Shown: piece by piece, positions 1,140 to 33,129 of the stretch
How positions within the stretch are numbered: the first letter of the stretch is position 1
Layout of the letters: every line of letters begins with the position of its first letter
DNA from: a virus
Strand: one strand, 5' to 3'
Virus genome (UHGV): UHGV-0198360
DNA: 37,260 bases
Notes under the pieces: model-generated
Databases searched by the model: none
What the model was told of the DNA's origin: nothing
The model's input: the letters and a program-made list of their open reading frames with translations, nothing else
Made by a program: the position numbers and the translations under genes

Positions 1140-2084
1140 TCAGTACATGTTCGGAAGAATTAGAATGGGCATGGCGATATTTCTGTTACGGGTCATATCC
1201 CATGCGCCAGAATAGCGGTCCGCAAACACTTTGTTGTAGGCTGACCTGACGCTACCACCTGACATGACCACGCCTTTGGTTCTGATATTTCCCCATCCAC
1301 CACTCATACGCACCTGAACGCCGGTATAGACTATCTGGCAGAACCCGCCCCCAATATCCTGAAAGGCATCGGTAATCTGGATTTGCCGGTCATAGACAAA
1401 AGGGCGTTTCAGCGTGGAGAACGTGACCTGGCCTGCGGCGTTGGTCATTGTGATACCGTCGCCGCCGACAGGTGCTGTCTGATTGAATATCACCAGGTCA
1501 ATCGTCGCCGTTCCGGCCACGTCGTCCCGCCCGTAGTAGGAAATATCGCGAACGATGATGTCGCTGCCATTAAACCCCACAGACACATTCGGGTTATCCC
1601 ATTTACCAAAAGGAATACCACCCACCGGAAGCGGCGCGCTGCCGCTAACCGTAATGCGCCCGGAATAAGCGCAGGTCATCAGGGCGGCCTGGTTGGAGAT
1701 GGCGGTAAAGTCTGTCGAGTTTGAAATAAACAGCCCTTCGTTATAAGTCGCCGCGGGCAGCAGCTCCATGACGTAGCCTGACCAATCCGGAGTAAGGGCT
1801 TTACCACCGATTGTCTCAGCACCAATGATGACCCCGGCGTCCCCGTTTCGGGTGACTCCTGTCATAATGGCCACATCAAATTCAGCGAAGGAATAGATGT
1901 AAATGGGATTGGTGGGTACAACGATAGCCAGTGAGCCGGGAACAAGTGGCGTATTGACCGGGTACTGCATTGACTGGGATGACCAGCCCGAGAAGGATGT
2001 GCAAAAACTTGGGGCACGCAGCCCTGCAGTAATTGCCATTGCCGGGCGTCCATCATTGTAGTCGATCAGAATTCCTTCAGGCAT
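1140..2084 (-). CDS. Hypothetical tail-associated protein (314 aa)
   Basis: ORF track; lies between the J-like tail tip gene and the tail fiber gene on the same strand; no recognisable catalytic motif. Confidence 0.5.
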   Translation of the reverse strand: MPEGILIDYNDGRPAMAITAGLRAPSFCTSFSGWSSQSMQYPVNTPLVPGSLAIVVPTNPIYIYSFAEFDVAIMTGVTRNGDAGVIIGAETIGGKALTPDWSGYVMELLPAATYNEGLFISNSTDFTAISNQAALMTCAYSGRITVSGSAPLPVGGIPFGKWDNPNVSVGFNGSDIIVRDISYYGRDDVAGTATIDLVIFNQTAPVGGDGITMTNAAGQVTFSTLKRPFVYDRQIQITDAFQDIGGGFCQIVYTGVQVRMSGGWGNIRTKGVVMSGGSVRSAYNKVFADRYSGAWDMTRNRNIAMPILILPNMY

Positions 2085-2092
2085 AGTTCACC

Positions 2093-4813
2093 TTATGTCC
2101 AGCGTCCAACGACAACGCGACCACCTCCCGAGAGATTTACAGTGATCCCGTTGCCGTCAATGCGAGTAACGTTATTCACTCCGTTAAATGCAAACTCACC
2201 ACTGTCGGCATAGAGTTTTCCATGGAATTCTGGGCTACCAGATTTCGGTAAATTCCATCCACGCCCACCACCACCGGGGACGAAGTTCGCAGACTGAAGT
2301 GAGTCGGTAATTTTCGCAAAATCGATGGATGCTTCCTGAATTAATGCGCTGCGAATAAATACCTGCCCGTTATAGACAAAGAATGCAGCCTGCCAGTTAC
2401 CTGGATTGTTACCGGAGTAAATACCGAACTGATCGGCGGCAAATACAACTGTGGATTTATAGCTGTTTCCTGATGGCTCAATAGACATGCCAAATCCGGT
2501 ATTGTATTTAACACCGTCTCGCACAATGCCCATATTCAGGGTGTAAGAGGCTTTCGCTGTTCCGTCACTTTTTACTTCAGCCGTCATTTTCTGGTTGACC
2601 GCAGAAGTCAGGCTTCCTTCCGGTCCTATTTGAGCCTGTACATAGGTGGATAAATCAGCAAGCCCCTGCTCAGCAGTAGCCACCGTGGTTTTTACGACCA
2701 GAATATCAGCGCGTACCTCACCATATTGTTGATACTGATGCTCAACGGAGCCATGATTAGCCAGCGCATTTTCCATAATGCCTTCCAGGTTAGTATCAAC
2801 CCCGGCCTTAATATTCTGGAACGCGTCAGAGTTCTGAATCTGATCATCTATGATGTCAATCAGCCCGCCCGTGTCCATAGAGCACAACGCCGGAACTTCG
2901 ATAAAACCAGATGCACCAAAGGCGTTAACCGTTCTGATGTACCAGTAATAGGTATGTCCAACCTGTAGCTGATTGCTTGTCCATGTGGTTCCCATGCCTT
3001 CGCGGCTTGCATTCCCTTCCACGGTCGCTGTTGAGGTATCAGGTAGTTTCGTTTCACCTGAAGTCCAGAAATCAAACTGCGTGGAAACATTAGTGATCGC
3101 CGCCAGACGCGGGATCAGCGTGACGGCAAAGAAGCCCTGCTCAATATCTACATGGGAAGGTGCTGGCGGGGCTTCAATGCTGAATTCCAGATACCCTTCT
3201 GGCGACTCTGCCCCCATCTGGTTTACAGCAATAACGTGGGCTGTGTAGGTATTTTTCGGTAACCCGGTAAGACGCGTGAACGTCCCCGGAACCTGGACTG
3301 ACATCACCATCTGACCATTGCGGCGAATGACCACTTTGTTGTAGACCACCTGACCGATGTTTTGCCAGGACAGAATGCCCTGCACGACCTGGCCAATTTC
3401 TTCCACGGTGTACTTCAGATTCTGCGGCTGCGCCACTCCGCCTGATGGCAACTGGGTGAACGGCGGCCGCTCAATCGGTTTACCAACAGCGTCGCCCCAG
3501 ACATCTGCGGTTTCCTGCTTCAGCGTCAGTTGCACGCCATTCTGAACGCCGAACTTCCAGTCAGTTACCCGCATCTCAACATTCATGATACCGATAGACG
3601 GGAAATTCACCTTCACATACATTCCCGGGCGGTAACGGTACCCGCTCAGGTTTAACGTAACGTTCATGGTTCTGGCGATGCGGGTGCGCTTTAACTTCAC
3701 ATCTGCCAGACGCTGGGCCTGAAATTCAGAGGTCACAAATCGCAGCTTCATATCCTGCGATATTTCCACGCCGTCTTCCGTCACCCATTCACTGACAGAC
3801 ACAGAAGGGAAATCCGCTTCGGTATAGCCTTGCTGCGGATCGACAAATGTCCCCTTGATAGTGTTAACACGTTCCGCCTGAGAGACTTCCGGCATGATTT
3901 CGATATCACCGGCCAGCTGGCTCTCAGTGATCACCTCTGTCGCAGGACCATAATAAGCCCCGACCAGAAGGCCATGTTTGCCCGCGGTATACGTTACATC
4001 CCCGGCGCATGCTGCCAGCATCCCTTCCAGAATACTGACCTTGTTTTCACTGAGGTCGAACTCACCGTTGATGGTATAGCGCTTCTCAACGGTATTACCG
4101 CCAGTAATCACATCCTCATCACAGATATTCGCCGCTTCCTTAAACTGGTCCCAGAGAATATCGGTGTCGGGCACTTTCAGGTAATTGCGGTAATAGTCCA
4201 GGATAACCAGCGCCGCATTGTTGCTGTAACCCGCCAACCCGGTACGCGGGTCATAAACGGCACGCCCCTGTTTTTCTACTTTGATGTTAGGGATACCTGC
4301 CGGGAATTTTTCAGCGTTGAACTTCAGGGATACGCGTAGCCAGGTGATCCCTTTCCCGATCATGTCTTCTTTCCATGACGGGCAGTTTTCCAGCATGTAA
4401 GGGTCCGCCGTCTGGCGGTTGGTGTGCACCTCGAAAAAGGCATGCTCAGGATAGCTACTGATAGGCTCATCACCCAGCCAGACAGTCTGCACACCGGATA
4501 ACGGGTGCCCCGCCAGAGCAATGGCCAGATGCAACATTTCACCATCATCCTGTTCGCCAGCCTGCTCTTCGGAAAAGAACAGAGTGCCAGCAGATGTGGA
4601 ACGACCATAAACAACGGTTTTGGCACTGGCCGCTGCGCGCAGAACCTGTTTGCGTTCAGACGTATCACGGTAGGAATTCAGCGATGGGGTCTTGGTCAGC
4701 GCCTGAGTGGCAATCTGTGCGGCGACGGTGATAACCATCGCAATGGCATACATTTCATTTGCCGCTGCCACACCTGCGGCAATGGTGGCAACTATAGGAA
4801 CAGCAGCAGGCAT
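2093..4813 (-). CDS. Tail tip / host specificity protein (J-like, 906 aa)
   Basis: Large ORF at the distal end of the tail module; start ATG overlaps upstream stop (TAATG); size and position typical of central tail fiber / host specificity proteins. Confidence 0.75.
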   Translation of the reverse strand: MPAAVPIVATIAAGVAAANEMYAIAMVITVAAQIATQALTKTPSLNSYRDTSERKQVLRAAASAKTVVYGRSTSAGTLFFSEEQAGEQDDGEMLHLAIALAGHPLSGVQTVWLGDEPISSYPEHAFFEVHTNRQTADPYMLENCPSWKEDMIGKGITWLRVSLKFNAEKFPAGIPNIKVEKQGRAVYDPRTGLAGYSNNAALVILDYYRNYLKVPDTDILWDQFKEAANICDEDVITGGNTVEKRYTINGEFDLSENKVSILEGMLAACAGDVTYTAGKHGLLVGAYYGPATEVITESQLAGDIEIMPEVSQAERVNTIKGTFVDPQQGYTEADFPSVSVSEWVTEDGVEISQDMKLRFVTSEFQAQRLADVKLKRTRIARTMNVTLNLSGYRYRPGMYVKVNFPSIGIMNVEMRVTDWKFGVQNGVQLTLKQETADVWGDAVGKPIERPPFTQLPSGGVAQPQNLKYTVEEIGQVVQGILSWQNIGQVVYNKVVIRRNGQMVMSVQVPGTFTRLTGLPKNTYTAHVIAVNQMGAESPEGYLEFSIEAPPAPSHVDIEQGFFAVTLIPRLAAITNVSTQFDFWTSGETKLPDTSTATVEGNASREGMGTTWTSNQLQVGHTYYWYIRTVNAFGASGFIEVPALCSMDTGGLIDIIDDQIQNSDAFQNIKAGVDTNLEGIMENALANHGSVEHQYQQYGEVRADILVVKTTVATAEQGLADLSTYVQAQIGPEGSLTSAVNQKMTAEVKSDGTAKASYTLNMGIVRDGVKYNTGFGMSIEPSGNSYKSTVVFAADQFGIYSGNNPGNWQAAFFVYNGQVFIRSALIQEASIDFAKITDSLQSANFVPGGGGRGWNLPKSGSPEFHGKLYADSGEFAFNGVNNVTRIDGNGITVNLSGGGRVVVGRWT

Positions 4814-5217: not shown

Positions 5218-5802
5218 TCACTTATAGGTAAATCCTGGTGCATCTTTTTTACTGCCCCAGTAAATCGAACGTTCAGACATCTGCGCCACATACCGGAATA
5301 TGCGGTCGCCGGGATAAGCGGCCTGCTGCGATTCATCGGTATAACGATCGGGGAAAGGACGCTGCCAGTCTTCAAAAATATTACTGATGGTGTACTGCAG
5401 GGCGTTCGTCCCGCCAGCGGTCGCCCCCGTACTGGATACCCGCCCTTTAAACAGGAGATCAGCAACATGGACAACACCGTTATCATCCATGGCCACCAGG
5501 TAGATTTCGGCATTTCTGCCCACGCATCGCTCATTCAGCGTGGTTGCAAAGAGGGCCATATCCAGACCCGAGAGGGTCATTTTGACCTGCGTGGGGCTGG
5601 TCGTGCTGGTTTCACTGGCATCATCAACAGAACCCATGCGGCCCATGCCGTAATAAACATAGCCACCAAGAACCAGCGTTCCTGTACCGGAATGCACATA
5701 GACGGTACCGGATTCAAACTGAATATTGGCGGCGATCGCGACTGTCACCCTGTCGCGGGATAACCAGTCCACCATCGAGTCAGAAAAAGGGGAATACAGC
5801 AT
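5218..5802 (-). CDS. Minor tail protein (194 aa)
   Basis: ORF track; translationally coupled (TAATG overlap with upstream gene) within tail module. Confidence 0.55.
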   Translation of the reverse strand: MLYSPFSDSMVDWLSRDRVTVAIAANIQFESGTVYVHSGTGTLVLGGYVYYGMGRMGSVDDASETSTTSPTQVKMTLSGLDMALFATTLNERCVGRNAEIYLVAMDDNGVVHVADLLFKGRVSSTGATAGGTNALQYTISNIFEDWQRPFPDRYTDESQQAAYPGDRIFRYVAQMSERSIYWGSKKDAPGFTYK

Positions 5803-6395
5803 TAAAATGCCTCCTCAAGCTCCAGCGTGTAACTGGTAAAAACACCCGGCACACGGTTACCGGCGCCCTGCTGGTTATCCTTCAGTTTGAAAATGCCGTA
5901 GGGTTTCGCAACTTCAATGGCAGCATTAGCAGGTGGTGAGCTACGTAACATCGGCGCAAAGGCAATCATTGCGGTACCGTTCGCCGCGCTCGTCACGTCG
6001 GCTGTAACCATCTTCAGTTCATCGTTAACTGTGAAATAATCGCCCTGTCTGAGCACAACTGTTCCCGGCGCCCAGCCCTTGCTTTGAATCTGGGTCCCTG
6101 TCTGATTAGCTCCATCAACAACGGGCACGCCCGCTGGCGCTCTGCCACTTCTCCCCCAGTCGCGAACTTTTACCCTGCCATACTCACCATCGAGGGAAGC
6201 CACCAGGGCATCAATACGCCTGGATTTTTCGTCCGTCAGGTTATTAAAGGTCAGGGAACATACCCAGCGGGTGCCGGGAAAGCGAGCTGTCTGCGATGAG
6301 CCATTGAAGGGGGAACGAAAAGTTTTGGTATTACTCTCCGGTCGCCAGGTCAGCGACGCGGGACAGACATCTTCCGGCCATTCGAGTACAGCCAT
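5802..6395 (-). CDS. Minor tail protein, possibly distal tail protein (197 aa)
   Basis: ORF track; strong SD (AGGAGAATCT) before ATG at 6395; first conserved tail gene downstream of tape measure. Confidence 0.55.
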   Translation of the reverse strand: MAVLEWPEDVCPASLTWRPESNTKTFRSPFNGSSQTARFPGTRWVCSLTFNNLTDEKSRRIDALVASLDGEYGRVKVRDWGRSGRAPAGVPVVDGANQTGTQIQSKGWAPGTVVLRQGDYFTVNDELKMVTADVTSAANGTAMIAFAPMLRSSPPANAAIEVAKPYGIFKLKDNQQGAGNRVPGVFTSYTLELEEAF

Positions 6396-6559
6396 AGATT
6401 CTCCTGCATTATTCTGCGCACGTTGGCGCTACTGATCATTTGTCAGGATGTTACTGATTTACATACCTGGTTATGGTTGTTACTCAGCCCGTCAGTGGTG
6501 GGACACTGGCGTTTTCTGATTAGGAGGGATGGCTGATTACCTCTGGATAAGGAAGTTAT

Positions 6560-6775
6560 ATGGACGAAGTAAGTGCAAAAGTTCAATTTAATTCAAAAAA
6601 AGAAAGCCTGAAGGAAGTCGCTGATGAATTAAATGATATTAAAATGATCCTTCTTAGCGTAGCTTTGAAATTAGACAATGAGGGTCGCCAGCAAATCATT
6701 AAGGAGTTATCACAGATTGATTCCCCATCGATTCAGCAATGGGTTGGCAATCTCAAAGGACTGCATCAGTCTTAA
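6560..6775 (+). CDS. Hypothetical small protein (71 aa), opposite-strand moron gene
   Basis: ORF track; strong SD AAGGAAG 5 nt before ATG; sits in a visibly AT-rich island; opposite orientation to all flanking tail genes. Confidence 0.5.
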   Translation: MDEVSAKVQFNSKKESLKEVADELNDIKMILLSVALKLDNEGRQQIIKELSQIDSPSIQQWVGNLKGLHQS

Positions 6776-7082
6776 TTCCTAATTTTAAGGTATAAAAACC
6801 ATTCGCGGCCTGATTTGTGGCCGCTTCAATAATCTTCGTGACAACATTTTGAGCATGCCCTTTCGCCCGCTGATTGTACCCTTCCAGGGTAAGTTCTGGC
6901 GTTAAGTCTTCGCTGTACTGGATAGTAGCTACGGTTGCTTTGCCAATTTTCACCGACACGTTACTACCAATGCGCTGCGTAGATGACATGGCCAAATTTT
7001 CTCCGAAAGAAATTCTTACTCCATTTTCTTTCGGAAACCCTACTTTAAATTCAAGTGACTCAATTCGTTGTTCTAAAGTCAT
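6753..7082 (-). CDS. Hypothetical protein (109 aa) in AT-rich island between tape measure and tail tip genes
   Basis: ORF track; SD GGGAGA 5 nt before ATG at 7082; 3' end overlaps the convergent 71-aa gene by 23 bp. Confidence 0.5.
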   Translation of the reverse strand: MTLEQRIESLEFKVGFPKENGVRISFGENLAMSSTQRIGSNVSVKIGKATVATIQYSEDLTPELTLEGYNQRAKGHAQNVVTKIIEAATNQAANGFYTLKLGIKTDAVL

Positions 7083-7123
7083 AACAGTCTCCCGCCTTTC
7101 GGCTTAATGAATATTAATAATGC

Positions 7124-9598
7124 TTACACGCCAAGTAATCGCCTTGCCTGTCCTCTATTAGAGAAATCCTGAAGCAAATCCTTACGCGCCTGTTTTGCAC
7201 CATCATTAGCACCCTGTCGTGCAGCTTCCTGCATAGCCTGCTTCAGTGCGGCATCTCCGTTACCGGAAATAGAGAAATGCTGCTGAATAGTTTGCTGGAG
7301 CTGAGCACCACCACCGCCAACAGAAGAAACCGTGTCATCCACCATACGAACACCGAGGTTACCGTCAGCAGTACGCGTAAGGGGCATAATAGCTTCAGGA
7401 CCAGCTTCTCCCATGAGCCCCGCACCTTTGGCGAAAGCAAACATCGTCGGACTGTTCACGACGCCATTACGGAAACGACTAAGATCAGGCGAATCCATTA
7501 CACCACCCTTGGCGAATTTCAATTGAGATGCCGCACCTGTATAAGCTCCGGACGGTGTTGCACCGCCAGCGGATGCTGCGCCAGCCACTGAACTACCAAA
7601 CATCCCACCAAGTGAACCAAACCAACCGCTATCACCAGCAGATTTAAGCGTGTTGACCATAATTGCCCTGAGCAAGACTTTCTGCAGCTCATTCAACACA
7701 CTGTTCGCCCAACTTGCCCAGTCAGCTTTATTACCACTGAGGGCATCAGCCATGTTATCCACCAGGCCATCAAGGGTGTTACCGACTAAATCTGATACCT
7801 GAGTGTAATAATCGCTGGAAGTATCTACCCAGTTAGCCAGACCATTCTGAGCCCCTGCCAGCCAGTTTCCCTGTAACTCATCCAGTTGGTCATAATGAGA
7901 ACGGTATTTATCGAGTCGCTCAGCAAGCGCTTTGTCCAGTTCCTGGTTATAACGGTCATAATCCTCTTGGCTACGAATATCTCCGCTCTGATACCGCCGT
8001 TGCAAATCCTCTCGCTTCTCCAGAAATTCGCGTTCAATGCTGAGTTGCTCACGCATCCTTTCGCGGGCTTTATCACCGAGTCCTGCGCCAATGACATCTG
8101 CATCAAGAGAAGCCGCTGAATTCGCATTTTCACGCTGAAGGTTCGATACGTATTCAGCCAGTTTTAGATTTTCCTCGTTTGCCTTTTTTACGGAATTTAG
8201 GCGATCAACCTCTGTAGCCAGTTGTTCAAGGCGTTGCTTCTGTGTTTCATTAAGTCCATTTAGCTTTCCGTCAGCGATATCAAATTGTAGTTTTTGCTGT
8301 TCAGTAACTTCTGCGCTTTTCTTTCCAGTGGTGTCGATGAGAGCAATCTGACGGAGGTAACTTGTCTCCATTGATTTAAAAGCTGATTCAATTTTTTTTG
8401 CTGAAGTATCAGTTTTTAATTTCCCGTTTGATTCTCCTGCGTCAAGACCATAATCTGTTTTAGATGAAGAATAATTACCTATGGTTGCTGGATATAGAGG
8501 TAGGTTATTTCCTGCTTTAAGGATTGCTCGGCGGCGTTCAAGCTCTGATCGTTCAGCCCGTTTCCTTTCCACATCCATTCCTAATCTGTTGAAATCTGCA
8601 AGAAAACCTTCGTCATTTAAATCTGCATCAAGGTTTCTTATGCGACGATCAATTTCCTCTATAGATGCATTCTCCCCTACTGCCTGTCCCCCTTTGTAAA
8701 GATCGATGAGTTTTCCTGCTTCCGCTCCAACCTTAACAAGCCAGGTAGCGAGGTCGACCACGCCACTAACAAGGTTGGTGATACCTTTGATAACTTCATG
8801 GTCTTTAAATACATCACCCATGTCGCTAATTGATTTCTGCAGGTTAGAAAGGTCAACCTTTGCTAATCCAGCTGATAATTCAATCTTAACCCCTTTAACT
8901 TGGTTTTCCATATCCTCAAAGATTGAATTAACTTTTACGAGACTTTCTATATCGGTATCATCTGGTGCTACGCCAAATTCTTTCGCAGCCTTAATATATT
9001 TTTGTAATTTATCACCGCCCTGATCAAGCAAAGGAAGCAACTTAGAGAGATCGTTACCCAAGCTTTCAAGAATAGTAGTCTTTTCAGCGTTTGTTTTAAT
9101 CTTGCTTAGCGCATCACTTATGGCTAAAAGTTGCTTATCCGGCGATTCACTCGATAATTTTTTAGCTGATAAACCGAGTGCATCCAATGCATCTACTGCC
9201 TCACCTGATTTATTCAGTACCGAGTCACCAATTTTATCTCCGATATCTTTAAAAATATCAGCCATTTGATCGCCTGAAACACCTGCTTTTTCTGCAGCAT
9301 ACTGCCAAGCAAGTAATGATTGAGTAGACATGTTGAGCGACTTAGCCCAACGGTCAGACTCAGTAATTTGCCTGGAGGTGTTTTTTAACAGGTTGTATCC
9401 AGCCACACCTACGCCAATAGCAGCGGCGCTTGCTGCAGTTGCTGCCCCTGTGAATGCAACAGCTACAGATTTTGCATCCTCTTGAACCTGTTTTCGCCAT
9501 TTCTGCGATGCCCTTTCAGCCTGGCTTAGGCCGCCAACAAAGCCGCCAACTTTGGCAATTAAGTCTATCGTTAATGTACCTAATGATTTACTTGCCAC
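7124..9598 (-). CDS. Tail tape measure protein (824 aa)
   Basis: Long ORF, predicted coiled-coil-rich N-terminal and Gly/Ala-rich C-terminal region; GTG start at 9598 preceded by SD GGAGGA; position after G/GT chaperone. Confidence 0.85.
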   Translation of the reverse strand: MASKSLGTLTIDLIAKVGGFVGGLSQAERASQKWRKQVQEDAKSVAVAFTGAATAASAAAIGVGVAGYNLLKNTSRQITESDRWAKSLNMSTQSLLAWQYAAEKAGVSGDQMADIFKDIGDKIGDSVLNKSGEAVDALDALGLSAKKLSSESPDKQLLAISDALSKIKTNAEKTTILESLGNDLSKLLPLLDQGGDKLQKYIKAAKEFGVAPDDTDIESLVKVNSIFEDMENQVKGVKIELSAGLAKVDLSNLQKSISDMGDVFKDHEVIKGITNLVSGVVDLATWLVKVGAEAGKLIDLYKGGQAVGENASIEEIDRRIRNLDADLNDEGFLADFNRLGMDVERKRAERSELERRRAILKAGNNLPLYPATIGNYSSSKTDYGLDAGESNGKLKTDTSAKKIESAFKSMETSYLRQIALIDTTGKKSAEVTEQQKLQFDIADGKLNGLNETQKQRLEQLATEVDRLNSVKKANEENLKLAEYVSNLQRENANSAASLDADVIGAGLGDKARERMREQLSIEREFLEKREDLQRRYQSGDIRSQEDYDRYNQELDKALAERLDKYRSHYDQLDELQGNWLAGAQNGLANWVDTSSDYYTQVSDLVGNTLDGLVDNMADALSGNKADWASWANSVLNELQKVLLRAIMVNTLKSAGDSGWFGSLGGMFGSSVAGAASAGGATPSGAYTGAASQLKFAKGGVMDSPDLSRFRNGVVNSPTMFAFAKGAGLMGEAGPEAIMPLTRTADGNLGVRMVDDTVSSVGGGGAQLQQTIQQHFSISGNGDAALKQAMQEAARQGANDGAKQARKDLLQDFSNRGQARRLLGV

Positions 9599-9608
9599 GC
9601 TGTCCTCC

Positions 9609-9635
9609 AGGTAAAAAAAAGCCCCGCAAAGCGAG
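9609..9635 (-). terminator. Candidate intrinsic terminator downstream of the zinc-ribbon moron gene
   Basis: Hairpin GCCTCGC-TTT-GCGGGGC followed by T8 on the minus strand (plus strand aaaaaaaagccccgcaaagcgaggc). Confidence 0.5.
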
Positions 9636-9672
9636 GCATTTTAATGCTTATTAAATAGTGTAAATATTACTT

Positions 9673-10392
9673 TTATTTTTTCTTTGCTTGCTCTGGATAA
9701 TCTGAAACATCAAAATCGAACCCCTGTTCGCCAGATTGATAAAATGTCACTCCAATAGTGATTTTTTTATTGCTCTTGATATATTTTTCGAAAGACTGTG
9801 GGTTATCAAGAAAAATCATATCTGATCTTCCAGACGCCTCACTACTTGCAGTCCAGATTTTTACCTTTCCGTTATCGCCCTTCGTTCTTATTGAGCAATC
9901 TGAGTAACCACATACAATCTGACCTTTAGATATCACGACATAGGCATCAGTACCTTGTTTTCTTTTGCGGAAAACCAAGTTGAGTACAGAACCACCATCA
10001 ACGTTGTATGGGAATGGGAAATTAACATGGTTTTTCGATGTATTATAAAAAATCTCCCCAACCTCACCAGTAACGCTATCTTTCGTGGGTTGGTTATGCC
10101 AGTTAATAACTGTAACTGGTTCTTTTTTTACCTCTACTTCTTTTACGACATCATTTTTCAACTTATCAGTGCTTACCTGAGTGCTACCCACTGTTTGGCT
10201 AGGTGCTTCTTTTTTATTGCTTACTTTGCCAATAAACAAAAGAAGGATAAGAACCCCTACAAAAATAAAAAACACCATCATACATCCCGATGGGCCTTTG
10301 TTTTTTTTTGCTATGGGAGCTCCGCACTTTGGACATGATGCGGCCTTATCAGATACCTGTTCTCCACACTCTTTGCATTTAATTAAAGCCAT
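9673..10392 (-). CDS. Zinc-ribbon membrane protein (239 aa), moron between tail chaperone and tape measure
   Basis: N-terminal CxxC...CxxC (CKECGEQVSDKAASCPKCG), then a hydrophobic helix (MMVFFIFVGVLILLLFIG), then a Lys-rich soluble domain; strong SD AAGGAGATCAAGGA; AT-rich relative to flanks. Confidence 0.6.
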   Translation of the reverse strand: MALIKCKECGEQVSDKAASCPKCGAPIAKKNKGPSGCMMVFFIFVGVLILLLFIGKVSNKKEAPSQTVGSTQVSTDKLKNDVVKEVEVKKEPVTVINWHNQPTKDSVTGEVGEIFYNTSKNHVNFPFPYNVDGGSVLNLVFRKRKQGTDAYVVISKGQIVCGYSDCSIRTKGDNGKVKIWTASSEASGRSDMIFLDNPQSFEKYIKSNKKITIGVTFYQSGEQGFDFDVSDYPEQAKKK

Positions 10393-10454
10393 TCCTTGAT
10401 CTCCTTGTTTTTAGATAGGGTAGCAAGGAAAGCGTTTCTAATAAATTCTACTTT

Positions 10455-11143
10455 TCAATTCCACGTCCTCATCGCTTCCTGCAGGCTGATTGGTTCGTTA
10501 GCGGCGACGCGCTCTACCGCTGCTATGTGAGGGGCGAAATCAGTAATGCTGAATGCCGGTGTGTTTGAACCGCGATTAACATTAGCCAGCACAGAAGAAA
10601 TCAACGCTGCTCCCCATTCCGTCCGCATCATAGGGTTCAGGTTTCCGTATTTTTGACGATACTGAACCCACTGCTGAAACTCAAGAAAGCTAAGGCGTTC
10701 CTGCGCTTCTGAAATGGTACGTCCACCAATCCCGTTAAGGACTAGTTCGCACCAGATTTCGTCTTCTGCGCTGAGTCCGTCTTTCCCAGATCGTTAACTT
10801 CCTGAATAGCCACCAGCAAAGCCACTGTAAGATTGCCATCCAGTGCGCCACGTTCCGGATCAGCCTCGCCGGTCACATCAGCAACGGTAAACACCTGATG
10901 CCCGTCTTCATCACAGATTGATGCTGCAATACGACCAGCAACGCCATCAATCTTGCCAAGACCGGCGAGAACATCAGACGTGGCAGTGTGATAACCCAGA
11001 GGGCGAACATAAGTTATGGCAATATGTTCTTCCCCGTCAGCACCTTTCCATTTAATTTCTTTCTCAACAGGACGACCAGTAAAAGCACCTGTTTTTTTCA
11101 GCGTATCAAGAGTCAGTTTCATGTAGTTTTCCGGTATAAACAT
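10455..11143 (-). CDS. Tail assembly chaperone GT fusion, made by programmed -1 frameshift at GGGAAAG (10781-10787)
   Basis: After the slippery site the -1 frame stays open for about 110 codons (DGLSAEDEIWCELVLNGIGGRTISEAQERL...RTWN*), ending at TGA 10455-10457; same arrangement as lambda G/GT. Confidence 0.6.
10742..11143 (-). CDS. Tail assembly chaperone (gpG-like)
   Basis: ORF between major tail and tape measure genes; contains slippery heptamer G_GGA_AAG near its 3' end; start taken at the first ATG (track start 11146 is a TTG). Confidence 0.7.
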   Translation of the reverse strand: MFIPENYMKLTLDTLKKTGAFTGRPVEKEIKWKGADGEEHIAITYVRPLGYHTATSDVLAGLGKIDGVAGRIAASICDEDGHQVFTVADVTGEADPERGALDGNLTVALLVAIQEVNDLGKTDSAQKTKSGAN

Positions 11144-11174
11144 CAATGAGGCGGGGTATGATCCCCGCGTTTAA

Positions 11175-19726: not shown

Positions 19727-20316
19727 CAGGCTAACCTCCACGCCCGGCGGCGTTCTGTTCGTGGAGCTGAGTCAGGGTGACGCTCAACCGGTTCGCCGTC
19801 TGCATGGTCCACCAGCGACCAGCAGGGATAGACGACAACGCCACCATAAGCATCGCCCACGGCATAATCGGCAGGCTTACTGCAGTCCCATTGAGACAGC
19901 ACACGGCTGATGCTTTGAGGCGGTATGCTGTAGCACACGCCATGTATCAGGCGTTGCAGCATAATGAAGTCAGACCTCACCTTATCCGCATTAATCAGGC
20001 GTTCAGCTATCTGCATTTGGTATTGCGGTGGCCGCCCAGTGCCCAGATAAAAACTAAGCATGTCGCCAGGGAAACGAGCCAGCCAGCCCGTAATCTTGTC
20101 TCTGAATCCACGTACAGGCAGCGCGTCGTCTTCCAGCACCACTACCCGGCAAGGTTGCTCAGCAGCCCATTCGATAGCGCGCCGGTGATTCCAGTTCGCA
20201 CCGTGATTCCCTTCATCGATAAGCAGGTGTGCGCCAAGTTCGCCAGCCAGCAATGCAGCTGAGGCATAGCGGGAATGGTGACCAATCACAACATACTTCA
20301 CTTGTGTTTCCACCAT
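19726..20316 (-). CDS. Hypothetical protein, possible small glycosyltransferase-like enzyme (196 aa)
   Basis: ORF track; strong SD AAAGGAGA; beta-strand then acidic VVVLEDD motif reminiscent of DxD glycosyltransferases; assignment tentative. Confidence 0.4.
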   Translation of the reverse strand: MVETQVKYVVIGHHSRYASAALLAGELGAHLLIDEGNHGANWNHRRAIEWAAEQPCRVVVLEDDALPVRGFRDKITGWLARFPGDMLSFYLGTGRPPQYQMQIAERLINADKVRSDFIMLQRLIHGVCYSIPPQSISRVLSQWDCSKPADYAVGDAYGGVVVYPCWSLVDHADGEPVERHPDSAPRTERRRAWRLA

Positions 20317-21755
20317 GCGGTCTCCTTTCCGAAGCCATCCGTTTTAAAGATGGTATGCACCAGAGGGCCGGTAACGATTCGATTACCGAATGACTTTGCA
20401 GCCATCCCGAAAGCGCCCATGTCCACCAGCGTGGCGGGAGCTGCTTCCATCTTCCAGAAGCGGTGGCTTTCAATAAGGTAATGCTGACGGATGATCCGGT
20501 GGGCGAACTCCATTACATCTTCACGGTAGCCACCAATCAGGCCAGCATTAAGCAGTTGCTCATCCCGGTGCAGTTCGAAGAACTCGCTATAAGCTTTGCC
20601 GTGGTGATTGTCCTTCATCCATTCGTCAAAGTAGGTTTTGTGCTCGGAGCCAACGTAAATTTTACCCGGCGCCATCTCTGCCCAAGGCTCACGCAGCATT
20701 TCAACGTCTGTCCCGTCAGTACACCAGACAAGATGGTATTCAGGGTGGGCACGAAGATACTGATAGATGTGAAGCCAGCGAGCAAAGTATGGGCTCATGC
20801 CCAACGGCGGGACTTCAAACAGACCGGCGCCAGTTGGCGACTCTTTTAATTCGTCAGCCAGGACAATCGGCAGCGCGCCGGATATTGAATCTGCCCAAGC
20901 CTGAAGAGCCTGCGGGTCGGGTTTCATCTTCCTGCCTCGCTGTGGGTCTGGCTGGCTTGTGAGCAGCGTCGTAATCACTAGATTTGGATTTCTGCTGTAC
21001 GAGGCAAAGCCTGTATAACCGCTGTCGCGTCGAGCGTTGAAGATGCCAACGTTTCTTTTTACCAGTGCCTCTCGGTCAGGCCGTGGTATTGAGCGCACGC
21101 CCTCTTCGTACTCGTCCATTGAGTGAATCAGCTTTTCAGAGCCAACTACATCAGCGAACGCCCACGACGTTAAACCAGCGTTGTGAATCCGAAGCGCCAG
21201 ATCGGGATGCTCGTACATGCCGCGACCGTATACCGGATCGAATCCGCCAACCTTCTTGATGGCGCTGCGGTGGTAGTAAAGCATCACCCCGCGCTGACCA
21301 GTGTAAGCAACATGCTTATCATCACGGTACAGCTCCGCCATGTCGTTCAGCTTATTGCGACCAGCCAGATCCAGAAACTGGTAAGCCAGGTGCGGCTCTG
21401 GTGATTCGATGTAGGGAAGATGCCAGTTATCGGCGATGGGCCAGGCATCATCATCCCATAAAAACAGATGCTCGCACCCGACATCCATCAGGGCTGACAG
21501 GCTGGCGTTCTTCGAGGCAACAATGCCGAGTGATGTTTCATGGCGAAGCAGTTGCACGCCGTCGGGTGCTATCGCTGCAGGTTTTGAACCATCATCGACA
21601 ACCACCAGCAGCGCACCGGCTGGCAGATGCTTCTGGTGCTGCTCAACAGCACGCTTTAAAACGTCCGCCCGGTTGTGGGTGGTAATCGCAATGCCAATCC
21701 GTGACGCTGAAGCACAGGCAGGCAAATACGGGACACCATCAATAGTGACCTGCAT
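20298..21755 (-). CDS. Glycosyltransferase family 2-like protein with extra C-terminal domain (485 aa)
   Basis: ORF track; N-terminal GT-A-like motifs (GIAITTHNRADVL, VVVDDGS, LWDDDAW); SD GGAGA before ATG. Confidence 0.55.
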   Translation of the reverse strand: MQVTIDGVPYLPACASASRIGIAITTHNRADVLKRAVEQHQKHLPAGALLVVVDDGSKPAAIAPDGVQLLRHETSLGIVASKNASLSALMDVGCEHLFLWDDDAWPIADNWHLPYIESPEPHLAYQFLDLAGRNKLNDMAELYRDDKHVAYTGQRGVMLYYHRSAIKKVGGFDPVYGRGMYEHPDLALRIHNAGLTSWAFADVVGSEKLIHSMDEYEEGVRSIPRPDREALVKRNVGIFNARRDSGYTGFASYSRNPNLVITTLLTSQPDPQRGRKMKPDPQALQAWADSISGALPIVLADELKESPTGAGLFEVPPLGMSPYFARWLHIYQYLRAHPEYHLVWCTDGTDVEMLREPWAEMAPGKIYVGSEHKTYFDEWMKDNHHGKAYSEFFELHRDEQLLNAGLIGGYREDVMEFAHRIIRQHYLIESHRFWKMEAAPATLVDMGAFGMAAKSFGNRIVTGPLVHTIFKTDGFGKETAWWKHK

Positions 21756-24339: not shown

Positions 24340-25170
24340 TTACGCGATATTTATCACATCTTCACTTTTAGTCACCCGGTTCAGTTGAGAACTTGAATAA
24401 CTCTCCTCCTGGAAACATTTGGTCACCAAGATTTCATAGAATGGTTTCCAGCTATAACGCCACGTCCGGTCTGGCAGACTGGGCAACTCGGAAAAAACAC
24501 CGCGATAGGCAACCGATGATTTTGGCCTGCTGTATCCCCGACCTTCACAGCGCTTACATTCTTTGTAAACCGGTACGCCCTGCAGTTCTGTCGCTTTACG
24601 GTCAATAGTCTTACCTGTGCCGCCGCACTGGCATCGCTTACTTAACTTTCCGGTGCCATGGCAGCGGGAACATAACGTATGATCAGTGTCAGTTACATCG
24701 CGCTTAACCTCAAAGTCAGATGGTGACTGTCTCAGGTCTTTTGCCCATTGTGGCAATCGCATTGTGTAATGGCTTTTAGTCACGGTTTTAGTGGTTGTAA
24801 GCAACCCTTTACCACTACATTTTGGGCATGCCACACAATCAGCTGCTGATGAGGAATAATCGTTATAGGCAAACCGGGCAAGGATACGCATGCAGAGGGG
24901 AAACTTTTTCCCTGATGCTTTACGAATAGCCATGGGAGCATGCTCTTTCGCGTACTCCGTTAGCCAGGCAATTGACGCCTCCCTGTCCTGGCTGCTGATA
25001 CAAGCTTTACCCAGAAACATTGCCAGCCCGATGCCCGCATCAGCCTGAGTCATCCCCAGTGCCGCCATTACATCAGTCACAGTAAGTTGCTCACTTGCTG
25101 TCGCTCTGCTGGTATCTGAGATGTGCATGCCTTTAGGCGCAAAAAACTTTAAAACATTGTCCAGATTCAT
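24340..25170 (-). CDS. Late antiterminator Q-like protein with four CxxCxGxG zinc-finger repeats
   Basis: ORF trimmed to ATG at 25170 (SD GGAGA); repeats CPKCSGKG, CSRCHGTG, CQCGGTG, CKRCEGRG; position immediately upstream of late promoter/terminator and lysis genes. Confidence 0.6.
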   Translation of the reverse strand: MNLDNVLKFFAPKGMHISDTSRATASEQLTVTDVMAALGMTQADAGIGLAMFLGKACISSQDREASIAWLTEYAKEHAPMAIRKASGKKFPLCMRILARFAYNDYSSSAADCVACPKCSGKGLLTTTKTVTKSHYTMRLPQWAKDLRQSPSDFEVKRDVTDTDHTLCSRCHGTGKLSKRCQCGGTGKTIDRKATELQGVPVYKECKRCEGRGYSRPKSSVAYRGVFSELPSLPDRTWRYSWKPFYEILVTKCFQEESYSSSQLNRVTKSEDVINIA

Positions 25171-25186
25171 ACGGTCTCCATACTTC

Positions 25187-26146
25187 TTAAGCTGTCGCAA
25201 TTACGCCGATCGCCAGCGCCCGATCCATAAAACGCAGTAGCAGCTCAAGCTGCGTACCATGCTTTTGCTCGAATGCCGGTACATCGGCGTGTAACTCATC
25301 GTGGCACTCTCTGCACAGAGGGATCACGAAGAGGTCATGGGCTTTTGTTGCTGTACCACCCATACCGTGCCCTACGATATGGTGCGGATCATCTGCTGGC
25401 CGTCGGCAACACTCACAGGGTTGTGTTTTAACCCAGCGGGTGTACGTCTCATTTATCCAGCGGCGTCGCTTTGGCCTGAGCATGAAAGACTCTGGCGACT
25501 CTGGATCAACAGAGAGCGTGAGGATCTTCTTCGCCTTCTCCTGAACGAGTCTGGTTGCTGACGAGGAAGGCACTATGTCGCTTTCCCTCATGACAGAACG
25601 GATCTTCTCATCCGGAAGGCGCAGCCCTTTGTGCGCAACGCTTTCCGGAATAATATCAGCCAGGTCGTTTCTGACCATCCACCAGCACAGTTCCGGAAGC
25701 GTCAGGATATGCGACTCGGGAAAACCAGAATCACGCCGAATGACTTCCAGAATCCAGGATACCAGGTTTCCGGCCGCTATACCTGCAAGCTGTTCGGTAT
25801 GCTGCCCCGACAAAGTGTGATCGCAATGCCAGCACAGGCGAATACTTCCTGGTGGGTGCCGCATTGTTGTGAAGTTCTTGTCGTGCCACGATGAATGTGG
25901 CCACTGGCATTCAAACCGATTACTCAACCATTGCTCAAGGGAAGAAATCCCACCGGCACGCTGAATAACCCTCTCATTCTCGAAGACCTGACGCATTACC
26001 GGATCATCAGTCAGCGGCTGAATGGCTGCCGGAACAGCCCCGGTACTGAATGACGCCATTTCTTCTGGTTCAGGCTCGAGCAGAACGCGACCACGCATGA
26101 AGAGGTGCATCAGTTCCGCACCAGGACGGAACAACACAATCCCCAT
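25187..26146 (-). CDS. DUF968-like protein with C-terminal HNH-like Cys/His motif (start uncertain)
   Basis: ORF track (342 aa from GTG at 26215); C-terminal CECCRRPADDPHHIV...CRECHDELH; several in-frame Met candidates and none has a strong SD. Confidence 0.5.
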   Translation of the reverse strand: MGIVLFRPGAELMHLFMRGRVLLEPEPEEMASFSTGAVPAAIQPLTDDPVMRQVFENERVIQRAGGISSLEQWLSNRFECQWPHSSWHDKNFTTMRHPPGSIRLCWHCDHTLSGQHTEQLAGIAAGNLVSWILEVIRRDSGFPESHILTLPELCWWMVRNDLADIIPESVAHKGLRLPDEKIRSVMRESDIVPSSSATRLVQEKAKKILTLSVDPESPESFMLRPKRRRWINETYTRWVKTQPCECCRRPADDPHHIVGHGMGGTATKAHDLFVIPLCRECHDELHADVPAFEQKHGTQLELLLRFMDRALAIGVIATA

Positions 26147-32373: not shown

Positions 32374-32472
32374 TTTTCCCTCTGGAGTTAAGTAATGCAG
32401 TGCACTGATAGTAGGATATCTTACATTGATTGGTCAAGCACTCCTACATCAGATAATGGTAGGATTACCTAC
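32374..32472. promoter_or_regulatory. Divergent promoter/operator region (OR-like; PR for cro, PRM for cI)
   Basis: Minus strand TTGACC - 18 nt - TACTAT upstream of cro; plus strand GATAAT about 15 nt before the cI start; operator-like ATAGTAGGATATCTTACATT (32408-32427) and inverted TCCTAC...GTAGGA (32442-32464). Confidence 0.55.
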
Positions 32473-33129
32473 ATGAAAATGAATGATCGAATCCGAAGCA
32501 GACGAAAAGAGCTAAAGATGACGCAATCCGTCCTGGCAAAGCTCGTCGGGGTTAATCGCGTCACTATCACCGGTTGGGAATCCGGTGACTACAAACCGGG
32601 TGGTGAAAACCTCCAGGCGCTTGCGGCTGCATTAGAAAAGACACCGCAGTGGTTACTGGATGGAAAGGATGATGGAAGTCAGCAGCCACCAACTATGGAC
32701 CCGGAGCAAAGATTCGGAATTAGGTCAGTTCCCGTTCTCACATGGGTACAGGCCGGGGAATGGACGGCCAATTGCGTAGCGATCACAGAGCGGGACATTC
32801 ATGACTGGGTCTATACTTCGGCTGCCGTTTCTGAAAGTGCATTTGCACTCATTGTTCGCGGCGACTCGATGACCAACCCTACAGGTGCACCAAGTATTCC
32901 CGAAGGTTCTATTGTCGTTGTAGAACCTGATTTTGGTGATGCCAGTCAAGCTAATGGTAAAATTGTTATTGCACAGCTTATGGGCAGTGATGAAGCCACT
33001 ATTAAAAAGTTCGTCATCGATGGGCCGCTGAAATACCTAGTACCTCTTAACCCCAATTACAGGACTTTAGAAGTCAATGGCAACTGCCGATTGGTAGGAT
33101 TAGTAAGACAAGTAATAATGGATTTATAA
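32473..33129 (+). CDS. CI-like repressor with LexA-type S24 autopeptidase domain (218 aa)
   Basis: Track ORF trimmed to ATG at 32473 (SD AGGA); N-terminal HTH (MTQSVLAKLVGVNRVTITGWE), C-terminal S24 motifs (GDSM, KIVIAQL). Confidence 0.8.
   Translation: MKMNDRIRSRRKELKMTQSVLAKLVGVNRVTITGWESGDYKPGGENLQALAAALEKTPQWLLDGKDDGSQQPPTMDPEQRFGIRSVPVLTWVQAGEWTANCVAITERDIHDWVYTSAAVSESAFALIVRGDSMTNPTGAPSIPEGSIVVVEPDFGDASQANGKIVIAQLMGSDEATIKKFVIDGPLKYLVPLNPNYRTLEVNGNCRLVGLVRQVIMDL

Follow-up and report, generated by a model that had tools for sequence, protein, structure and literature searches.

Pairs of phage genes on opposite strands have been described in a few systems. In Pseudomonas phage JBD26, the 83-amino-acid (aa) protein Tab is encoded on the opposite strand in the late operon and is expressed constitutively from its own promoter, while anti-Tab, encoded on the late strand, binds Tab; the target of Tab, as found experimentally, is the C-terminus of the tape measure protein (PMC10884400). 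The taiEcA and atiEcA genes of phage phi80 were called a 'noncontiguous operon', in which overexpression of Q lowers TaiEcA (PMC11364771), and the tha and ith genes of Staphylococcus aureus phages are another precedent for such a layout (PMC11087260). The moron characteristics used here are those in the summary of PMC3594210, which follows Juhala et al. 2000, namely extra DNA, an own promoter, an own terminator, a deviant composition, and expression in the prophage; in that summary, the gp15 moron of phage HK97 is a prophage-expressed membrane protein of superinfection exclusion. HK97 also has a late-strand gene, gp22 ('moron product'), and a gene facing it, gp23 ('reverse moron product'), which overlap by 123 base pairs (bp) between genes I and J. 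Here I describe a gene pair of this kind in the virus genome UHGV-0198360, a stretch of 37,260 nucleotides (nt), the whole of which is called the window below. The pair lies at positions 6,396 to 7,123 and consists of a plus-strand open reading frame (ORF) of 71 aa, called the cargo, and a minus-strand ORF of 109 aa, called the partner. A structured leader RNA precedes the cargo ORF.

By sequence comparison, the window pair is a member of the HK97 gp22/gp23-type 'moron plus reverse moron' cassette. The assignment is made because the leader also precedes HK97 gp23, where the covariance model of the leader (R1) finds it with 73 bits and an expectation value (E) of 1e-14, and because HK97 gp22 is a profile homologue of the 109-aa family (HHalign probability 92.3%, E 5.5e-7; Foldseek template modelling scores 0.56/0.52). 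The cargo gave no corresponding homology to gp23. The window cargo belongs to BLAST cluster 0, which also holds the HK022 gp23 type, whereas a close homologue of HK97 gp23 (L060, MSFNKEDQ...) forms a separate singleton cluster. Since the cargo is the variable part of the cassette, this mismatch does not exclude membership. The leader was also found ahead of HK022 gp23 ('srb protein; moron gene product'), between I and J, and ahead of ES18 gp25 ('possible moron'), between M and L; the match was made with the covariance model in HK97 and with blastn in HK022 and ES18. FSL SP-016 has the same leader and the same minus-strand gene around a different, unannotated 73-aa plus-strand ORF, and SPN3UB has the same leader and the same plus-strand ORF family facing a different minus-strand gene, between the tail genes M and L. 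In HK633, SaltyDalty, and CharmingMan, the leader lies outside the tail operon, and an unannotated HK633 ORF of 111 aa (L005 1633-1968, minus strand) is homologous to the 109-aa protein (36% identity, E 2e-12). This cassette type has been annotated since 2000, and its function has never been characterised; the HK97 and HK022 genome paper is reportedly Juhala et al. 2000, J Mol Biol 299:27. No functional data for HK97 gp22/gp23, HK022 gp22/gp23, or ES18 gp24/gp25 were found in the searchable literature, where searches for 'reverse moron', a moron promoter, and HK97 gp22/gp23 likewise gave nothing relevant.

Is the cassette an addition to the tail operon? Serratia phage Serbin, Klebsiella phage VLCpiS6a, and Escherichia phage KS_W4 have the same tail gene order as the window, and in each of them 1-3 nt separate the end of the tape measure gene, at its stop codon, from the distal tail start (for Serbin, a tblastn match supplied the start). 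The window has 728 bp (6396-7123) where the two genes of these relatives abut. In this comparison the block is DNA added to a tail region of otherwise shared gene order, which is the moron trait of extra DNA between genes adjacent in relatives. Because the two genes abut in the relatives, the 109-aa protein is no core tail component. An alternative would give it a structural or assembly role in the tail and make the plus-strand ORF incidental, in keeping with its late-strand position between the tape measure and distal tail genes and with faint matches to tail families (TIGR01665, E 0.08; phrog_31849, E 0.035). However, phages with the same tail module lack the 109-aa gene, its homologue in HK97 is placed at the I|J junction and that in HK633 ahead of the terminase region, and the family always stands beside a leader-driven reverse gene, so that this alternative is extremely improbable. 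The original prediction had itself named a conserved tail component, with the plus-strand ORF absent from relatives, as the outcome that would speak against it; this was looked at, and it is not what was found. Its proposal of horizontally acquired cargo is borne out by the empty sites in relatives and by the presence of the same modules at other genome positions in other phages.

The low-GC island that had been proposed for the pair was retained in part. The guanine-plus-cytosine (GC) content is 0.40-0.44 across 6400-7200 and 0.53-0.55 on the distal-tail side, as expected from the proposal, but the tape measure DNA at about 8000-10400 is equally AT-rich (GC 0.37-0.43). The gene pair is thus no sharply bounded AT-rich island, the 5' two-thirds of the tape measure gene being equally AT-rich. 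Within the tape measure gene, DNA similarity to FSL SP-016 is confined to about 320 nt at the 3' end (7124-7441); the rest of the gene (7442-9598) is AT-rich, and the encoded protein has 824 aa, compared with 918 aa in FSL SP-016. These differences point to a mosaic junction within this gene, next to the cassette. In the SP-016 record, the 73-aa leader-driven ORF (L001 3259-3480, plus strand) is unannotated, and the distal tail gene is annotated with an N-terminal extension into the left end of the cassette, where the terminator remnant lies, directly ahead of the promoter and leader.

The coordinates, lengths, and Shine-Dalgarno (SD) sequences of the two ORFs, their 23-bp convergent overlap, and their tape measure and tail gene flanks (Table 1) are all as first described. 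The shared bases are 6753-6775. An SD-like AAGGA (6549-6553) lies 6 nt ahead of the plus-strand ATG, and an SD-like GGGAG (minus strand, 7093-7089) lies 6 nt ahead of the minus-strand ATG. The 71-aa ORF matches phrog_6806 (E 8e-29) and the 109-aa ORF matches phrog_11851 (E 1e-53), each over nearly the whole length, both PHROGs being of unknown function. The ratio of nonsynonymous to synonymous substitution rates (dN/dS) of the 71-aa ORF, calculated against an SPN3UB-type relative, is 0.13 in frame and 0.26-4.0 in the other five frames. From the PHROG matches, the dN/dS of the 71-aa ORF, and the confident structure model of the 109-aa protein, both ORFs are genuine genes. The window, a lambdoid prophage, has a CI-like repressor gene (32395-33129, plus strand), a Q-like antiterminator gene (24340-25200, minus strand), and, according to the ORF map and PHROG annotation, a single continuous minus-strand late operon, which contains lysis, glycosyltransferase, terminase, portal, head, connector, major tail protein, and chaperone genes, followed at its tail end by the tape measure, distal tail, tail protein, and J (2093-4813) genes. 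The statement that the plus-strand gene is the only one running against the late operon agrees with this map and annotation, as far as they go.

Table 1. Coordinates of the cassette and its flanking genes in the window
Feature	Position	Strand	Details
Distal tail protein gene	5802..6395	-	phrog_1302
Left-end terminator remnant (T0)	6416..6429	-	GCGC-N6-GCGC, no T-run; degenerate
Putative sigma-70-type promoter of cargo	6450..6477	+	-35-like GTTACT 6450-6455, 16-nt spacer, -10-like TATGGT 6472-6477
Structured 5' leader RNA	6484..6559	+	about 80 nt; covariance model R1
Leader UCAGCC	6484-6489	+	invariant segment
Leader hairpin P2	6490-6511	+	CGUCAGUG/CACUGGCG
Leader hairpin P3	6523-6544	+	GGAGG/CCUCU; 12-nt conserved loop GAUGGCUGAUUA
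GGCUGA in P3 loop	6531-6536	+	complementary to UCAGCC, possible pseudoknot
Cargo ORF ("reverse moron")	6560..6775	+	ATG start, 71 aa, phrog_6806
Partner ORF	6753..7082	-	ATG start, 109 aa, phrog_11851
Partner unconserved C-terminal tail and stop	6753..6803	-	read-through past hairpin 3' side into antisense of cargo 3' end
Partner conserved part, residues 1-93	6804..7082	-	phrog_11851
GC-rich hairpin GCGGCC-N8-GGCCGC	6805..6824	both	29 nt past cargo stop; within partner ORF, encodes AATNQAA
Spacer, tape measure stop (7124-7126) to partner start	7083..7123	-	41 nt, contains SD GGGAG
Tape measure gene	7124..9598	-	Pfam Tape_meas_lam_C, phrog_2854

The leader gives the cassette its constant part. 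R1 has one match in the window (6449-6583, 122.9 bits, E 4e-25), and in an alignment of 100 non-redundant copies (A3) the order of the elements is a -10-like hexamer, 6-7 nt, UCAGCC, P2, a variable linker, P3, an AAGGA-type SD, and the start codon. At a constant register of 6-7 nt ahead of the invariant TCAGCC, the -10-like element (TAnGGT/TATGTT) is conserved in the 100 leaders, divergent ones included, and the start of the cargo transcript is predicted at about 6483-6485. In P2, six of the eight pairs have changes on both sides. Over the whole leader structure, 97.1% of the cells are paired, compared with 93.7% in shuffles, and the covariation is 0.155, compared with 0.094 when shuffled, a value reached by none of 500 shuffles; sliding the partner columns drops the pairing to 30-50%. 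These comparisons indicate a conserved secondary structure on the mRNA strand, in which P2 is strongly and P3 partly supported. The support comes from the comparison of copies, the folding of the single window leader being unremarkable (z = -1.0). When the anchor leaves both sides of the possible pseudoknot free, CAGCC and GGCUG are still essentially invariant, and breaks in the outer U-A pair are frequent. Both segments are also kept in a minimal subclass of leaders without P2, found mostly in Xenorhabdus and Photorhabdus. Since the UCAGCC/GGCUGA pairing is conserved but no covariation was detected in it, the pseudoknot remains an inference. The 3' side of P3 (GAUUACCUCU) is similar to the 3' end of 16S rRNA (GAUCACCUCCUUA), a similarity given as a lead only. 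GGA motifs are present around P3 and at the SD and could conceivably be CsrA sites. A further helix, P1 (CAGGGT...ACCCTG, 6444-6469), was tried as a part of the RNA and rejected because it lies upstream of the -10-like element and is absent in divergent copies; on reading the alignment, its commonest variant gives an A.C on the plus strand. P1 may be promoter or operator DNA.

The conserved non-coding block could instead be read on the minus strand, as a small RNA or a 3' untranslated region (UTR) ending at the left-end terminator. In most other copies (alignments A1 and A2), this terminator is intact, with AGCCGC/AGCCACC...GCGGCT/GGTGGCT followed by T6, so that the block ends in a strong minus-strand intrinsic terminator, annotated as such in the ES18 and HK97 records; the minus-strand fold of the window has z = -1.9. 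However, the terminator is degenerate in the window itself, in whose subfamily, with the distal tail gene start at 6395, both the stem strength and the T-run are gone. The distance from the block to the SD and from the block to the start codon of the plus-strand ORF is fixed in all copies. Moreover, the strands differ in the variation they tolerate: at one pair, 91 of 92 sequences have a standard pairing when read on the plus strand and 27 of 92 when read on the minus strand, and for another pair the numbers are 79 and 50. Since G.U-type variation is tolerated on the plus strand only, the leader is taken as a plus-strand RNA and a minus-strand small RNA as ruled out; the minus-strand reading is the least probable of those weighed here. 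The Rfam search gave no match over the window at the gathering score and none in the leader at E up to 10, and no occurrence of the leader sequence was found in the searchable literature. The leader thus appears to be undescribed.

Is this leader common in Enterobacterales? A census was made by pattern scans, and its figures are lower bounds. The leader core was found in more than 119 viral contigs and at at least 52 loci in about 45 Enterobacterales species, in genera that include Citrobacter, Enterobacter, Kluyvera, Pantoea, Erwinia, Pectobacterium, Xenorhabdus, and Photorhabdus. The core hairpin occurs in at least 60 metagenome contigs; 42 distinct sequences were taken from these, and about 38 of them have the full leader context. 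In complete Escherichia coli genomes the leader is rare (13 of 5,426), and it is never annotated as an RNA. About 130 bp upstream of the plus-strand ORF match several otherwise unrelated phages. Some phages or genomes have at least two leader-driven cassettes at different sites, such as SPN3UB (L002 3023-3157 and 6113-6247), L045 (279-413 and 4404-4538), and several Xenorhabdus genomes (L217/L218, L242/L250); the second SPN3UB copy lies just upstream of the tape measure gene, ahead of SPN3UB_0029.

The leader-driven cargo comprises at least 110 distinct proteins in 18 BLAST clusters, most of them 63-99 aa in length, and includes helical mini-proteins, DUF1883, a zinc-ribbon family, a retropepsin-like protein, and a few larger proteins. 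Because the downstream proteins are so diverse, the leader is probably a general expression platform for diverse cargo. The window cargo is modelled as three helices (2-37, 40-51, and 56-70) with a predicted local distance difference test (pLDDT) score of 79.7, and no informative fold or family match was found for it. It has 16 homologues in Salmonella and Citrobacter, all 'hypothetical', and a protein identical to it is recorded for Salmonella enterica; the 109-aa protein likewise has close relatives in Citrobacter and Salmonella, again all 'hypothetical'. Pfam, NCBIfam, and PADLOC scans gave nothing above threshold for either window protein. The same scans of several other cargo proteins gave nothing above threshold except DUF1883 for one unrelated cargo family, and the ES18 partner matched DUF1327.

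Downstream of the cargo lies the GC-rich hairpin, which was scanned as terminator-like on the minus strand. It is kept in SP-016 and SPN3UB, and a comparable hairpin is found in 101 of 156 distinct cargo downstream regions. The hairpin is likely to be the terminator of the cargo transcript. To judge from the partner alignments, it is also the recombination junction of the cargo and partner modules. In the family alignment of the partner (A4), conservation runs from residue 1 to the hairpin-encoded EAAxxQAA (around residue 93), and the sequences diverge straight after it, into at least 10 unrelated tails of differing length; most homologues align to only 85% of the query. In the partner, the MTLEQRxExLE peptide at the N-terminus is followed by a beta-sheet of four strands (residues 10-59) and then by a long helix (66-100), modelled with pLDDT above 90 for residues 10-85 and 49-60 for the tail. 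Residues 86-106 match PHROG 9873, which is the SPN3UB partner, beside the same cargo family; the two proteins otherwise differ, and it is their tails that match. The partner closely follows a late gene in the window and in the inspected gpM|gpL-type copies. Neither in these copies nor in the window, with its spacer after the tape measure gene, is there room for a promoter, and the partner of the window is therefore probably read from the late transcript.

Does the overlap of the two genes have a function? Across 135 cassettes, the stop-to-stop distance ranges from a 128-bp gap to a 54-bp overlap. Since the overlap varies, and since the overlapped tail is unconserved and changes with the neighbouring cargo, the 23-bp overlap is taken as incidental, a by-product of the module junction whose extent depends on where the partner frame meets a stop codon in the adjoining module. 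The overlap had been proposed to be compatible with antisense regulation. As a designed feature it did not hold up; the plus-strand gene is nevertheless an independent unit against the late operon, and antisense interplay with late transcription is plausible, as shown for analogues (PMC11364771, PMC11087260).

The variation of the overlap also bears on the suggestion that the pair is a toxin-antitoxin (TA) or toxin/immunity pair under antisense 3'-end pairing, in the manner of type I TA systems. Convergent overlapping genes in a prophage would suit this suggestion, and 3'-overlapping type I TA systems occur in Gram-positive prophages (txpA/RatA and bsrG/SR4). However, with stop-to-stop values from -128 to +54 nt, and with the overlapped part of the 109-aa ORF being its unconserved tail, 3'-end pairing is a poor basis for such a system. 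The 71-aa protein is charged, its longest apolar run is about 12 residues with interrupting lysines, and its three helices are amphipathic without any membrane-spanning stretch. Both proteins look soluble, neither has a TA match in PADLOC, Pfam, or NCBIfam, and partner and cargo families reassort. The toxin/immunity idea was accordingly dropped as very unlikely.

How firmly are cargo and partner linked? Among the 135 non-redundant cassettes, the facing ORF has an N-terminus of the MTLEQRVEALE type in 44, and about 25 (a count from the listing) have a MISYEVEFPT-type partner, which is the phrog_11851 family without the N-terminal peptide. DUF1883 cargo always occurs with a phrog_21096 partner (L044, L052, L134, L136, L140, L145, and L201), whose signature is '...NGETIW.RD...KDGTQQKII.ALE'; of the cargo-partner combinations in the data, this one is the most clearly cognate. 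The MGSMSELEK cargo is found mostly with the MISYEVEFPT partner. Two unrelated partners, SPN3UB_0032 (L002 3317-3523, minus strand) and that of L070, match the same stretch of about 30 residues of Pfam Phage_Tail_Tip (PF09327, lambda J type), both below threshold (E about 0.0015, 18.6-18.7 bits against a cut-off of 22). In tblastn searches, SPN3UB_0032 also matched the C-terminal part of the J proteins of distant phages (E 0.03-0.9). Tai escape mutants map to the J C-terminus. It is conceivable that some partners act as decoys or mimics of a tail-tip segment; no such J-like motif was seen in the partner of the window.

On this basis, I consider it very likely that the locus is an accessory cassette in which the cargo is an independent unit and the partner a late gene. 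The best overall explanation, which I regard as reasonably probable, adds to this architecture a cargo made in the lysogen and, by analogy, roles in defence and counter-defence. The cargo would be transcribed in the lysogen from its own weak sigma-70 promoter, starting at about 6484 and ending at the hairpin. On induction, Q-modified polymerase would pass the hairpin and the left-end terminator, and the partner would be made only when Q-antiterminated late transcription crosses the cassette. Being antisense to the cargo mRNA and promoter, late transcription would at the same time lower cargo expression, as in a 'noncontiguous operon'. The cargo would benefit the lysogen, for example by blocking competing phages in analogy to Tab/anti-Tab, Tai/Ati, and Tha/Ith, and the late partner would protect lytic growth of the phage itself. 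Taken singly, a defence-type role of the cargo is quite possible by this analogy, and a partner that serves as its antidote is rather doubtful.

The main rival is a functionally unrelated gene pair: two independent accessory genes sharing a hot spot, of which the cargo would be a lysogenic-conversion, host-modulating, or anti-defence factor and the 109-aa protein an unrelated late protein. Several results favour this rival or otherwise weigh against the proposed working. Cargo and partner families reassort, the window partner family occurring beside at least seven cargo clusters and the window cargo family beside two partner families, and a strictly cognate inhibitor is therefore disfavoured. 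Many cassettes have no small partner at all, and the DUF1883, zinc-ribbon, and retropepsin-like cargo speaks for a general expression platform, not for one system. The cargo promoter was not flagged by the consensus promoter scan, and its -35 element is weak. Only 27 of the 101 downstream hairpins are T-rich on the plus strand, on which the T-run of the window hairpin is also poor. In a tblastn search of 50,697 phage records with the 71-aa protein at E up to 10, no Pseudomonas phage matched, the presence of JBD26 among the records being unconfirmed, and neither window protein matches any PADLOC model, PADLOC 2023 predating Tab. On the other side, a few recurrent partner types stand in the same convergent position at four or more genome sites, and the constant combinations described above (DUF1883 with phrog_21096; MGSMSELEK mostly with MISYEVEFPT) speak against independent genes. 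I therefore hold the unrelated pair to be unlikely, though a reading to be taken seriously, and keep the cassette with a lysogen-expressed cargo and a late partner as the preferred explanation.

A broader proposal, put forward tentatively, is that the leader represents a new class of cis-acting RNA, a compact pseudoknotted 5' UTR serving as a portable regulated platform, and that, with the late partners, it marks out a large family of cassettes for defence and counter-defence, or for a similar conflict, which has gone unrecognised and follows the noncontiguous-operon principle. If so, the small prophage proteins expressed from this platform throughout Enterobacterales would be a hypervariable arsenal under its regulation, and the RNA would have a P3 whose 3' side resembles the anti-SD end of 16S rRNA and a P2 as an optional covarying hairpin. 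A single leader that can be searched with a covariance model marks hundreds of cassettes, and it may thus be a handle for mining small accessory proteins of prophages in Salmonella, Citrobacter, E. coli, Pantoea, Xenorhabdus, and others. If the cargo proteins are anti-phage or anti-defence factors, the principle of Tab, Tai, and Tha would be extended to a larger and more diverse enterobacterial set and to a new structured RNA family. Since HK97, HK022, and ES18 carry the element, the proposed logic is quickly testable: the reverse gene should be on in the lysogen and the partner only late in the lytic cycle.

Other genes of the window also look accessory. An ORF of 239 aa (9673-10392, minus strand), very AT-rich (GC 0.37-0.39), lies between the tail assembly chaperone gene (10742-11146) and the tape measure gene, where HK97 carries its gp15 moron; its N-terminal 85 or so residues and its residues 88-237 match PHROGs of unknown function. 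This ORF may represent a further accessory insertion into the tail operon, besides the cassette. Directly downstream of J, a 314-aa membrane protein of the PHROG class moron/host-takeover (phrog_1265; 1140-2084, minus strand) is another accessory gene at the end of the tail operon. A glycosyltransferase moron (phrog_1579; 20298-21755, minus strand) lies between the lysis and terminase genes. In many other phages (L006, L007, L011, L012, etc.), a leader-driven cassette adjoins a glycosyltransferase-like gene, which is not the case in the window; in SaltyDalty and CharmingMan this neighbour is annotated 'glycosyltransferase' and, judged by annotation, is apparently of the same kind as that of the window.

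How does the locus compare with the described systems? Like HK97 gp15, the window pair lies in a lambdoid tail operon beside the tape measure gene as small accessory genes. Unlike the pair, gp15 is a membrane protein without a convergent partner, and in the HK97 tail region R1 found the gp23 copy only, with no leader similarity at gp15. With the HK97, HK022, and ES18 cassettes, the window shares a convergent small-gene pair between tail genes, the same leader on the reverse gene, and the same position of the left-end terminator. The differences are the site, which is tape measure|distal tail in the window and I|J or M|L in the three phages, the degenerate terminator of the window, and, in comparison with HK97, a cargo of another BLAST cluster than gp23. 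The phi80 genes resemble the window in that a reverse gene interrupts a Q-controlled late operon beside a small late gene, which in phi80 counteracts the reverse gene, and in expression of the reverse gene by the lysogen, predicted for the window, but TaiEcA is much larger (about 26 kDa when tagged, against 71 aa), and phi80 was not among the 26 phage records with the leader. In Tha/Ith, the strand roles are inverted, the inhibitor being the antisense gene. Tab belongs to another host clade and lies between terminase genes, and no shared leader is known for it. On the other hand, as in Tab/anti-Tab, a small reverse-strand gene (71 compared with 83 aa) with a promoter, putative in the window, is placed inside the late operon, and, like anti-Tab, a small late-strand gene directly follows a structural or packaging gene and faces the reverse gene. 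The logic of constitutive prophage expression against late expression is proposed for the window pair by analogy. Thus, its relation to Tab, Tai, and Tha would be that it 'works like' these systems, not that it 'is a member of' them.

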